From Escherichia coli (GTDB lineage: Bacteria; Pseudomonadota; Gammaproteobacteria; Enterobacterales; Enterobacteriaceae), in NCBI RefSeq assembly GCF_003018115.1, contig NZ_CP027457.1: 64,000 bases of DNA; one strand, written 5' to 3'. Below, piece by piece: positions 53,019 through 53,300 of this stretch (the first letter of the stretch is position 1; each line of letters opens with the position of its first letter). The position numbers were made by a program, and so were the translations under genes. The notes below the pieces were generated by a model. It saw nothing but the letters and a program-made list of their open reading frames with translations. It had not been told where the DNA came from and did not search any database.

Positions 53019-53300
53019 GCTAAAGGAATTGTTGTTAGACGAAGCCTTTTTCGCCTTTACCGGATCGATGCCAACCGAGATGTCTTTCCTCGCAGTCCAT
53101 GCCTTATCCCTTGCCTCCTGCAAAGTCATTAGCGGATATTTTCCTACGGTCAGGATTTTCTCCTTACCGTCAATCTTGTAGCGAAGCTGCCATACCTTTT
53201 TCCCTGACACAGGGACATAAAGGTACAGGCCATTACCATCGAGAAGGCGGTATGGTTTTTCTTTCGGCTTTGCTGCTTCAATCTGCTTAACGGTGAGCAT
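53019..53300 (-). pseudogene. intS: N-terminal 94-codon stub of a P4-like tyrosine integrase (arm-binding domain only)
   Basis: Encodes MLTVKQIEAAKPKEKPYRLLDGNGLYLYVPVSGKKVWQLRYKIDG...NNNSFS, then the frame runs into IS sequence; no catalytic domain. Confidence 0.8.

Follow-up and report, generated by a model that had tools for sequence, protein, structure and literature searches.

How does a phage integrase gene come to end, to the base, where an insertion sequence begins, and what has become of the rest of that gene and of its prophage? These questions are raised by a locus beside the tRNA gene argW of Escherichia coli, found within a 64-kb stretch of DNA (64,000 nucleotides; 'the window', here meaning the whole of that stretch). 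The csc cluster of E. coli sits between the highly variable argW region and dsdX, i.e., at a hot spot of both recombination and phage integration (PMC3032704, PMC11251922). The order in the window is the csc cluster, the insertion sequence ISEc46, an integrase stub, and then argW (Table 1). RefSeq annotates this region as cscA, a kinase, an MFS transporter (cscB), a TnpB-family protein, a tnpA of the 'IS200/IS605-like element ISEc46 family', an incomplete arm-domain protein, tRNA-Arg, yfdC, and mlaA. Both halves of the junction, ISEc46 tnpA and the int stub, are therefore already in that annotation.

Seven complete E. coli genomes out of 5426 have the layout of csc, ISEc46, int stub, and argW. 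Over the 4.2 kb surrounding the stub all seven are 100% identical, and they include O169:H41 ETEC (F9792, F6326-C1, and 2014EL-1345-2). An assembly artefact is ruled out by this identical structure in seven independent complete genomes. Several layouts of the variable argW-dsdCXA/csc region of E. coli were also met with among the genomes compared here, and no description of the layout of the window was found in the literature searched.

Table 1. Features of the locus between the sucrose cluster and argW, in positions of the window.
Feature	Position	Strand	Description	Basis
cscR-cscA-cscK-cscB sucrose cluster	46094..51177		Present neighbour of ISEc46	ORFs and RefSeq annotation
Native cscB 3' flank	51178..51256			
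ISEc46 (IS200/IS605 family)	51257..53019	-	1763 bp	~99.4-99.5% identical full-length copies elsewhere; RefSeq tnpA 'ISEc46 family'
ISEc46 right end	51257..51289	-	Terminal TCAC (51257-51260), hairpin CCTCGCCC-GACA-GGGCGGGG (51266-51285), guide GAAG (51286-51289)	Sequence and fold
tnpB	51297..52466	-	RNA-guided endonuclease family protein, 389 aa, appears intact	Pfam HTH_OrfB_IS605, OrfB_IS605, Cas12f1-like TNB
tnpA	52523..52948	+	Y1 (HUH) transposase, 141 aa, intact, HVH and SYF motifs	Pfam Y1_Tnp, E 5.8e-39
Left-end subterminal hairpin	52982-53002	-	CCTCGCCC-AATGC-GGGCGGGG	DNA fold, z = -3.05
Left guide tetranucleotide	53003-53006	-	AAAC, 5' of hairpin; hairpin and guide together 52982..53006	
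Chimeric ORF	52911..53300	-	129 codons: 94 int and 35 IS-specified, then stop	ORF from ATG at 53300, stop at 52911-52913
TTAG	53020..53023	-	ISEc46 target and left cleavage site, intS nt 278-281	
intS stub	53020..53300	-	nt 1-281 of CPS-53/KpLE1-type tyrosine integrase gene	Alignment, blastn/tblastn, Pfam
Native argW-int spacer (attL arm)	53301..53461	-	161 bp	Colinear with K-12, scattered substitutions only
attL core of CPS-53-type prophages	53462-53476		argW 3' end	K-12 record: CPS-53 begins 15 nt inside argW
argW, tRNA-Arg(CCU)	53462..53536	-		ARAGORN; Rfam tRNA 63.4 bits; identical to K-12 argW

What remains of the integrase gene can be seen by comparison with K-12 IntS (b2349), the integrase of the cryptic prophage CPS-53/KpLE1 at argW. 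Against the argW-intS region of K-12 the window is colinear from argW as far as ...TCCTTTAG (...TCC TTT AG), where the alignment abruptly ends; this fixes the breakpoint after nucleotide 281 of intS. Those 281 nucleotides match positions 53300-53020 at 98.6% identity (blastn), and residues 1-94 of K-12 IntS match 53300-53019 at 100% identity (tblastn against the window, E 1.6e-56). The stub also shares with intS its attL position, 161 bp from argW, and its N-terminal Arm-DNA-bind_3 domain. An earlier note, made from the letters of the window, had described the stub as the first 94 codons, the arm-type part only, of a P4-like integrase, and both tblastn and Pfam bear that out. At the DNA level what is left is 93 codons plus 2 nucleotides. 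By chance the first base of ISEc46 (C, 53019) supplies the third position of a serine codon, which is AGC here where K-12 has AGT, and it is for this reason that '94 codons' is true at the protein level.

Absent from the window, relative to K-12, are residues 95-385 of IntS (the core-binding and catalytic domains), the CPS-53 genes compared, and attR. That is, IntS 95-385 has no tblastn match in the 64 kb, a displaced distal part of int, for which the earlier note had suggested looking, therefore being absent there. The 64 kb likewise lack the K-12 CPS-53 genes that were compared, which extend as far as yfdI and the beginning of tfaS. Similarly, the direct repeat that an attL/attR pair would supply was sought, and there is no second copy of the argW 3' end (TGGTGTCCCCTGCAG) in the 64 kb, even at 3 mismatches.

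Past the break, the reading frame of int runs on into ISEc46, the final 38 nucleotides of the resulting chimeric ORF being antisense to the 3' end of tnpA. The length of this continuation, 35 codons before a stop, had been read correctly. The phrase 'fused in frame', if taken as meaningful, is a different matter, as 35 stop-free random codons have a probability of 0.19 and the in-frame fusion therefore carries no information. The 35-codon IS tail is accidental. Within the 129-aa product Pfam recognizes Arm-DNA-bind_3 only (residues 2-86, E 3.7e-26, profile positions 1-82 of 83) and no Phage_integrase (catalytic) domain, in agreement with the earlier statement that no catalytic domain remains. 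RefSeq gives the stub as an incomplete 'Arm DNA-binding domain-containing protein' with its C-terminus missing, and treats it as a pseudogene. A pseudogene is what the int stub is, one that consists of the N-terminal, arm-type DNA-binding part only. The spacer between argW and int contains a weak promoter-like site (53350-53323, a 9/12 match), this being a consensus match only.

The sequence past the break is, as had been supposed, that of an IS. Its family, which the earlier note did not name, is IS200/IS605, and the element is ISEc46. Positions 51257-53023 match ISEc46 copies at unrelated sites at 99.3-99.4% (among the full-length matches listed), so that the 94 codons are not followed here by native, non-IS sequence. 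Six aligned copies of ISEc46 differ at 24 variable columns, with each about 99.4-99.5% identical, and the same RefSeq tnpA protein accession is carried by the window-identical F9792 copy, by a copy at yfaX, and by a plasmid copy. The match to the IS and the homology to intS, which starts at 53020, overlap by 4 bases (CTAA on the plus strand, TTAG on the minus strand). At the other end, the match to the cscB flank of IS-free genomes stops at 51256 and does not overlap the IS. Because the flank homologies end at 53020 and 51256, ISEc46 proper is taken to be what lies in between. Break and IS end therefore do coincide to the base, as claimed earlier, with K-12 intS homology ending at 53020 and ISEc46 at 53019.

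The direction of tnpB, toward 51257, identifies that end of ISEc46 as the right one and the end on the int side as the left one. The left end thus adjoins int and the right end adjoins the cscB flank, with the active 'top' strand of the element being the minus strand of the window, which is also the coding strand of int. The tnpA and tnpB genes are divergent. Subterminal hairpins of the form CCTCGCCC...GGGCGGGG are found near both ends, on one strand, and there are no terminal inverted repeats; the foot of the left hairpin lies 17 nt from the cleavage site. A scan of 50900-53700 against Rfam returned the tRNA only, that is, no curated RNA family at the right end of ISEc46. From its family membership, ISEc46 would be expected to transpose via single-stranded intermediates (PMC3201880). 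With tnpA and tnpB both appearing intact, the copy seen here may still be capable of excision, the result of which would be int nt 1-281 fused to the csc flank. Titles and abstracts in which ISEc46 is named belong mainly to genome and resistance surveys, and no mechanistic study of the element surfaced among them.

In the segment 52460-52522, which takes in the 56-bp tnpA-tnpB intergenic region, there are strong divergent matches to sigma-70-like promoters, with TTAACA-17-TATAAT, preceded by an extended TG, on the plus strand, and on the minus strand TTGATA-16-TAAAAT. These are matches to consensus only, and expression of tnpA and tnpB may be coupled.

Members of this family are best understood by way of IS608 of Helicobacter pylori, the mechanistic paradigm, with which ISEc46 has in common a Y1 HUH transposase and subterminal imperfect hairpins. 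IS608 cleaves at its left end at, and targets, TTAC, and recognizes it through the guide AAAG, which directly adjoins the hairpin foot on its 5' side (PMC3201880, PMC5934647), while its right site, TCAA (CR), is read by the guide GAAT (GR) (PMC5934647). Altering the left guide shifts the target predictably (PMC3201880, PMC5934647). In ISEc46, too, one tetranucleotide is both left site and target, and 4 nt on the 5' side of the hairpin foot would serve as its guide. Its target TTAG goes with guide AAAC, versus TTAC and AAAG in IS608, and its right-end TCAC goes with GAAG, versus TCAA and GAAT. The last position is thus changed complementarily at both ends. Spacings from hairpin foot to cleavage site are also close: at the left end 17 nt, against 19 nt in IS608, and at the right end 9 nt, against 10. 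The divergence of tnpA and tnpB in ISEc46 is a difference from IS608. As AAAC is the complementary change that the IS608 rule would lead one to expect, TTAG is both the empirical and the predicted target of ISEc46.

Empirically, TTAG stands directly 5' of the ISEc46 left end in 15 of 15 independent copies. Four of these are at E. coli sites (intS, yebE-ptrB, yfaX, and an IncHI1B plasmid), with unrelated sequence past their right ends. The other 11 are left ends from Proteus faecis and Phaseolibacter flectens, found by an exact-match scan of one genome per species. Copies at yebE-ptrB, at yfaX, and on plasmid pEF7-18-51_1 resemble that at intS in their length of 1763 bp, in their hairpins, in their divergent genes, and in the TTAG 5' of the left end. 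The flanks of the yebE-ptrB and yfaX copies, when joined, are contiguous in 5024 and 3914 IS-free genomes, respectively, and for this reason ISEc46 insertion can be described as seamless, with neither duplication nor loss of target sequence. Both of these copies are simple, seamless insertions, whereas the copy at intS is flanked by two sequences that are nowhere contiguous. It is the identity of the family, i.e., insertion 3' of TTAG with neither inverted repeats nor target duplication, that makes junctions interpretable here, and given a strict target and seamless insertion each of the two junctions can be read as a transposase product.

The left junction is that of a textbook ISEc46 insertion into intS, since the coding strand of K-12 intS contains exactly one TTAG, ending at nucleotide 281, and the break falls right after it. 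Insertion being seamless, the right end of a simple insertion should meet intS from nucleotide 282 onward, but it meets instead the cscB 3' flank. The point in that flank at which it does so, 51256|51257, is where csc genomes without the IS go on with CTAA, which is TTAG on the top strand of the IS. Read directly in two such genomes (L002 and L003), the plus strand at this point is ...gccctg|CTAATAATCGCC, and in the direction of the IS top strand it is ...ATTATTAG|CAGGGCTAAGC (or shorter, ...GGCGATTATTAG|CAGGGCTAAGC), i.e., TTAG|CAGGGC. An O157 locus (L012) gives a flank match ending at the same base. The right end of ISEc46 therefore adjoins CAGGGC exactly as it would following a native insertion at the csc-flank TTAG. 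This is a coincidence that chance is unlikely to supply, since TTAG makes up only 0.17-0.32% of positions locally on that strand. Not one of the 5426 complete E. coli genomes has the joined flanks of the intS-locus copy as contiguous sequence. With both junctions matching TTAG sites and their flanks not contiguous, both look to be transposase-made, at two different targets.

What may have once lain between those two targets is indicated by other layouts of the locus. In O157:H7 strain FRIK944 the order is dsdA, a dsdX fragment, cscRAKB, a DUF4942 gene fragment, attR, a 7.4-kb P22-like prophage remnant, intS, and argW. The attR of this strain repeats the argW 3' end (TGGTGTCC-CTGCAGGAATCGAA) but lacks 1 nt, and 8471 bp separate the two TTAG sites there. 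This is the layout that would be expected of the precursor of the window. Strains of the OkiPb01695 type lack a prophage here and have cscB followed by the DUF4942 fragment and argW; their flanks are 100% identical to the window. From these comparisons we infer that the lineage of the window lost the distal 877 bp of int, the prophage, attR, and about 360 bp of older flank with the DUF4942 fragment, which in an O157-like layout would amount to a loss of about 8.5 kb. Excision mediated by Int is ruled out as the cause, as it would restore the cscB-DUF4942-argW layout seen in OkiPb01695, and the deletion also took attR and about 360 bp beyond it.

As judged from these layouts, the stub is a relic of an intS prophage once located between argW and csc, as is still the case in O157:H7. 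The earlier note had taken the island at argW to be immobile. Two things are run together in this, for the stub is the relic of a separate prophage: intS is not the integrase of the csc cluster, and csc is a neighbour of intS rather than its cargo. Of the intS prophage only attL and the stub are left, so that nothing else of it could move, attR having been lost in the deletion.

Other relics are found at this locus in other strains. In 2013C-3492 (L002 4098-4135; also 2013C-4830 and 2012C-4227) there is an independent, IS-free int stub of about 195 bp, which is frameshifted. At its junction the attR copy of the argW 3' end (TGGTGTCCCCTGCAGG) meets similar sequence in int (TTGCCTCCTGCAAAG), which points to a deletion between attR and a site within int that resembles the core. 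As this stub is independent of that in the window, intS has been truncated at least twice, by different routes, at the argW locus. In E. coli EC26 (L011 8814-8984), which is of the dsdCXA type and carries an intact intS prophage, a second integrase arm-domain stub is present at the far end of the prophage, adjoining a truncated dsdC-like LysR gene, and it is another relic of serial integration at argW.

That the deletion in the window was mediated by the IS, in one manner or another, is highly probable, and of the ways in which this could have come about we lean toward recombination between two direct copies of ISEc46, with deletion of the interval. Under such a scenario a CPS-53/P22-like prophage with intS would have integrated at argW, between argW and the older csc cluster. 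ISEc46, a single-strand 'peel and paste' IS, would then have inserted after the TTAG of intS (nt 278-281), with a second ISEc46 inserting in the same orientation after the TTAG found 79 bp downstream of cscB. Homologous recombination between these copies, whether within one chromosome or between sister chromosomes following a local hop, would have removed everything in between. A single IS would have been left, bordered on its left by int and on its right by csc sequence.

Deletions between direct IS repeats leave one IS with the outer flank of each parent and with native junctions, and the same is seen here, that is, a single IS has non-contiguous flanks while each junction, on its own, is a legitimate insertion junction. 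Exchanges between direct repeats, moreover, are something that IS200 copies in Salmonella support, as Haack and Roth are said to have found in 1995. A two-copy precursor was not seen for the intS/csc case among complete E. coli genomes or metagenome contigs. The second copy is purely an inferred one, since the chromosome of F9792 shows ISEc46 in one place. Also counting against recombination between copies is the distribution of SNPs in ISEc46, with the 24 variable sites scattered and forming no mosaic of diverged parents, though sister copies would also give none. The final sequence, furthermore, is identical to what a one-ended reaction of TnpA, described below, would produce.

Single-insertion intermediates were also looked for. 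Artificial queries for a simple ISEc46 insertion in intS (junction RE|TGCGATTTACAAGG) and for a simple insertion at the csc-flank TTAG (junction GGCGATTATTAG|CGAAAAACGCC) gave no full-length match among the complete E. coli genomes (5426), and neither intermediate turned up when metagenome contigs were scanned for the exact junctions, absence from collections being, of course, compatible with the existence of such intermediates.

A further consideration is orientation. GC skew is +0.04 on the plus strand of the window in all eight 8-kb blocks, and with such a positive skew the top strand of ISEc46 is assigned to the leading-strand template, whereas the reported preference of IS608 is for the lagging-strand one (PMC3201880). 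Two ISEc46 insertions in leading-strand-template orientation are thus somewhat unexpected, but this orientation does not discriminate between the two-copy model and the one-ended model.

The alternative to two copies that fares best, if still an improbable one, is that a single ISEc46 insertion in intS was followed by an aberrant, one-ended TnpA reaction giving rise to an adjacent deletion. TnpA would cut the right end of the element along with the TTAG of the csc flank and would join that right end to CAGGGC, freeing the intervening strand as a circle. The exact product seen is given by such a reaction, both TTAG coincidences are explained with just one insertion, and the absence of a second copy or of an intermediate is in keeping with it. 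The cleavage pair, too, is that of normal integration, i.e., GR at the right end and GL at TTAG, according to the chemistry of IS608 (PMC3201880, PMC5934647). Set against this is that the guide of the left end is normally occupied by its own flanking TTAG, that the two sites, up to about 8.5 kb apart, would both need to be in single-stranded form at the same moment, and that the top strand is on the leading-strand template. Also weighing against it, excision of IS608 reportedly drops steeply with element length (Ton-Hoang and colleagues, in 2010, are the ones said to have seen this). We know of no description of adjacent deletion, or of a one-ended reaction, for the IS200/IS605 family, and the literature consulted contained none. 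If true, this reading would make such 'gentle' single-strand IS capable, by themselves, of wearing away adjacent DNA, prophages for example.

Considerably less probable than either is the reverse order of events, in which an IS-independent deletion joined intS to the csc flank at TTAG microhomologies and ISEc46 inserted only later, at the single TTAG of the joint. A deletion at 4 bp of microhomology would leave just such a single TTAG, and an IS-free int truncation exists at the locus, that of the 2013C-3492 type with its 195-bp stub joined at attR. The IS, however, would have to pick the TTAG of the joint from among many, TTAG occupying 0.17-0.21% of positions per strand in the window, and the empty joint, int nt 1-281 directly on the csc flank (TTTAG|CAGGGCTAAGC), occurs in 0 of the 5426 genomes.

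It is very improbable that ISEc46 inserted once, into intS, with an unrelated deletion then happening to extend from the last base of the IS to just beside a TTAG. This is the simplest reading of the first of two alternatives in the earlier note, which were that the IS inserted into int with later rearrangement removing the distal part, or that the IS end mediated the deletion, and deletions are frequent at the argW hot spot (PMC3032704, PMC11251922). Two coincidences are nonetheless required, with one endpoint flush with the IS terminus and the other exactly 3' of a TTAG (p ~0.002-0.003). Insertion of the IS into int with later loss of the distal part is essentially right as a mechanism, but neither of those alternatives, as worded, explains why the far end of the IS also falls exactly at an ISEc46 target (TTAG|CAGGGC). 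As for the stub itself, that the 129-aa arm-domain protein has been retained as something functional, e.g., for binding the arm sites of incoming intS-type phages, is very doubtful: its Arm-DNA-bind_3 domain is complete (1-82 of 83), its native upstream region survives, and its structure is 100% identical in seven genomes, but these seven are identical over all of the 4.2 kb compared, such that conservation is silent on selection, its tail is arbitrary IS antisense sequence, an independent stub of another length is frameshifted in other strains, and RefSeq calls it a pseudogene.

The locus is one of ordinary prophage decay by IS-mediated deletion at a known hot spot, a feature, that is, of known kind. 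As a clean, base-resolved example of prophage decay at argW it has little significance beyond bookkeeping. It does supply a modest natural test case for deletions associated with the IS200/IS605 family, of recombination between copies, as favoured here, versus an aberrant TnpA reaction. In addition, the ISEc46 target, TTAG, and the guide and cleavage-site pairs should be useful both for annotation and for studies of ISEc46 TnpB.

Elements resembling ISEc46 were met with in other bacteria and on another replicon. Plasmid p1_035148, which has lytic replication, Icd-like, and Rha genes, carries at L009 2206-3535 an 84%-identical relative with tnpB but without tnpA. Its left-end-like terminus is not clearly preceded by TTAG at the assumed boundary, and the element is probably either a tnpA-less derivative or a different IS. 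Proteus faecis TJ1636 (L015-L023) has at least nine left ends of ISEc46 type, each preceded by TTAG; for these no right end was seen downstream within the DNA examined, and several lie within about 100 bases of a sequence end. This suggests a recent ISEc46-type expansion that is fragmenting the assembly.

Phaseolibacter flectens ATCC 12775 contains a 47-nt, miniature ISEc46-like element (L013 7457-7503, minus strand; also L014), CGAAAAACGCCGTAAACCCTCGCCCAATGCGGGCGGGGAGCAGTCAC, in which a single hairpin stands between the initial 17 nt of the left end and the final 9 nt of the right end. The scan showed no full-length copy in that genome. The element has TTAG 5' of it at two different sites and, going by its structure, looks like a minimal non-autonomous (PATE-like) derivative.

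Elsewhere in the window, between mlaA and fadL, where K-12 has yfdF, is an AT-rich (32-35% GC) ORF of 422 aa (55774-57042, minus strand). It has no significant Pfam family (best E 0.12) and is hypothetical in RefSeq. The gene at this position varies in length across strains (1269, 1245, 1032, and 1059 bp), and the ORF is probably a small variable locus that has been horizontally acquired.
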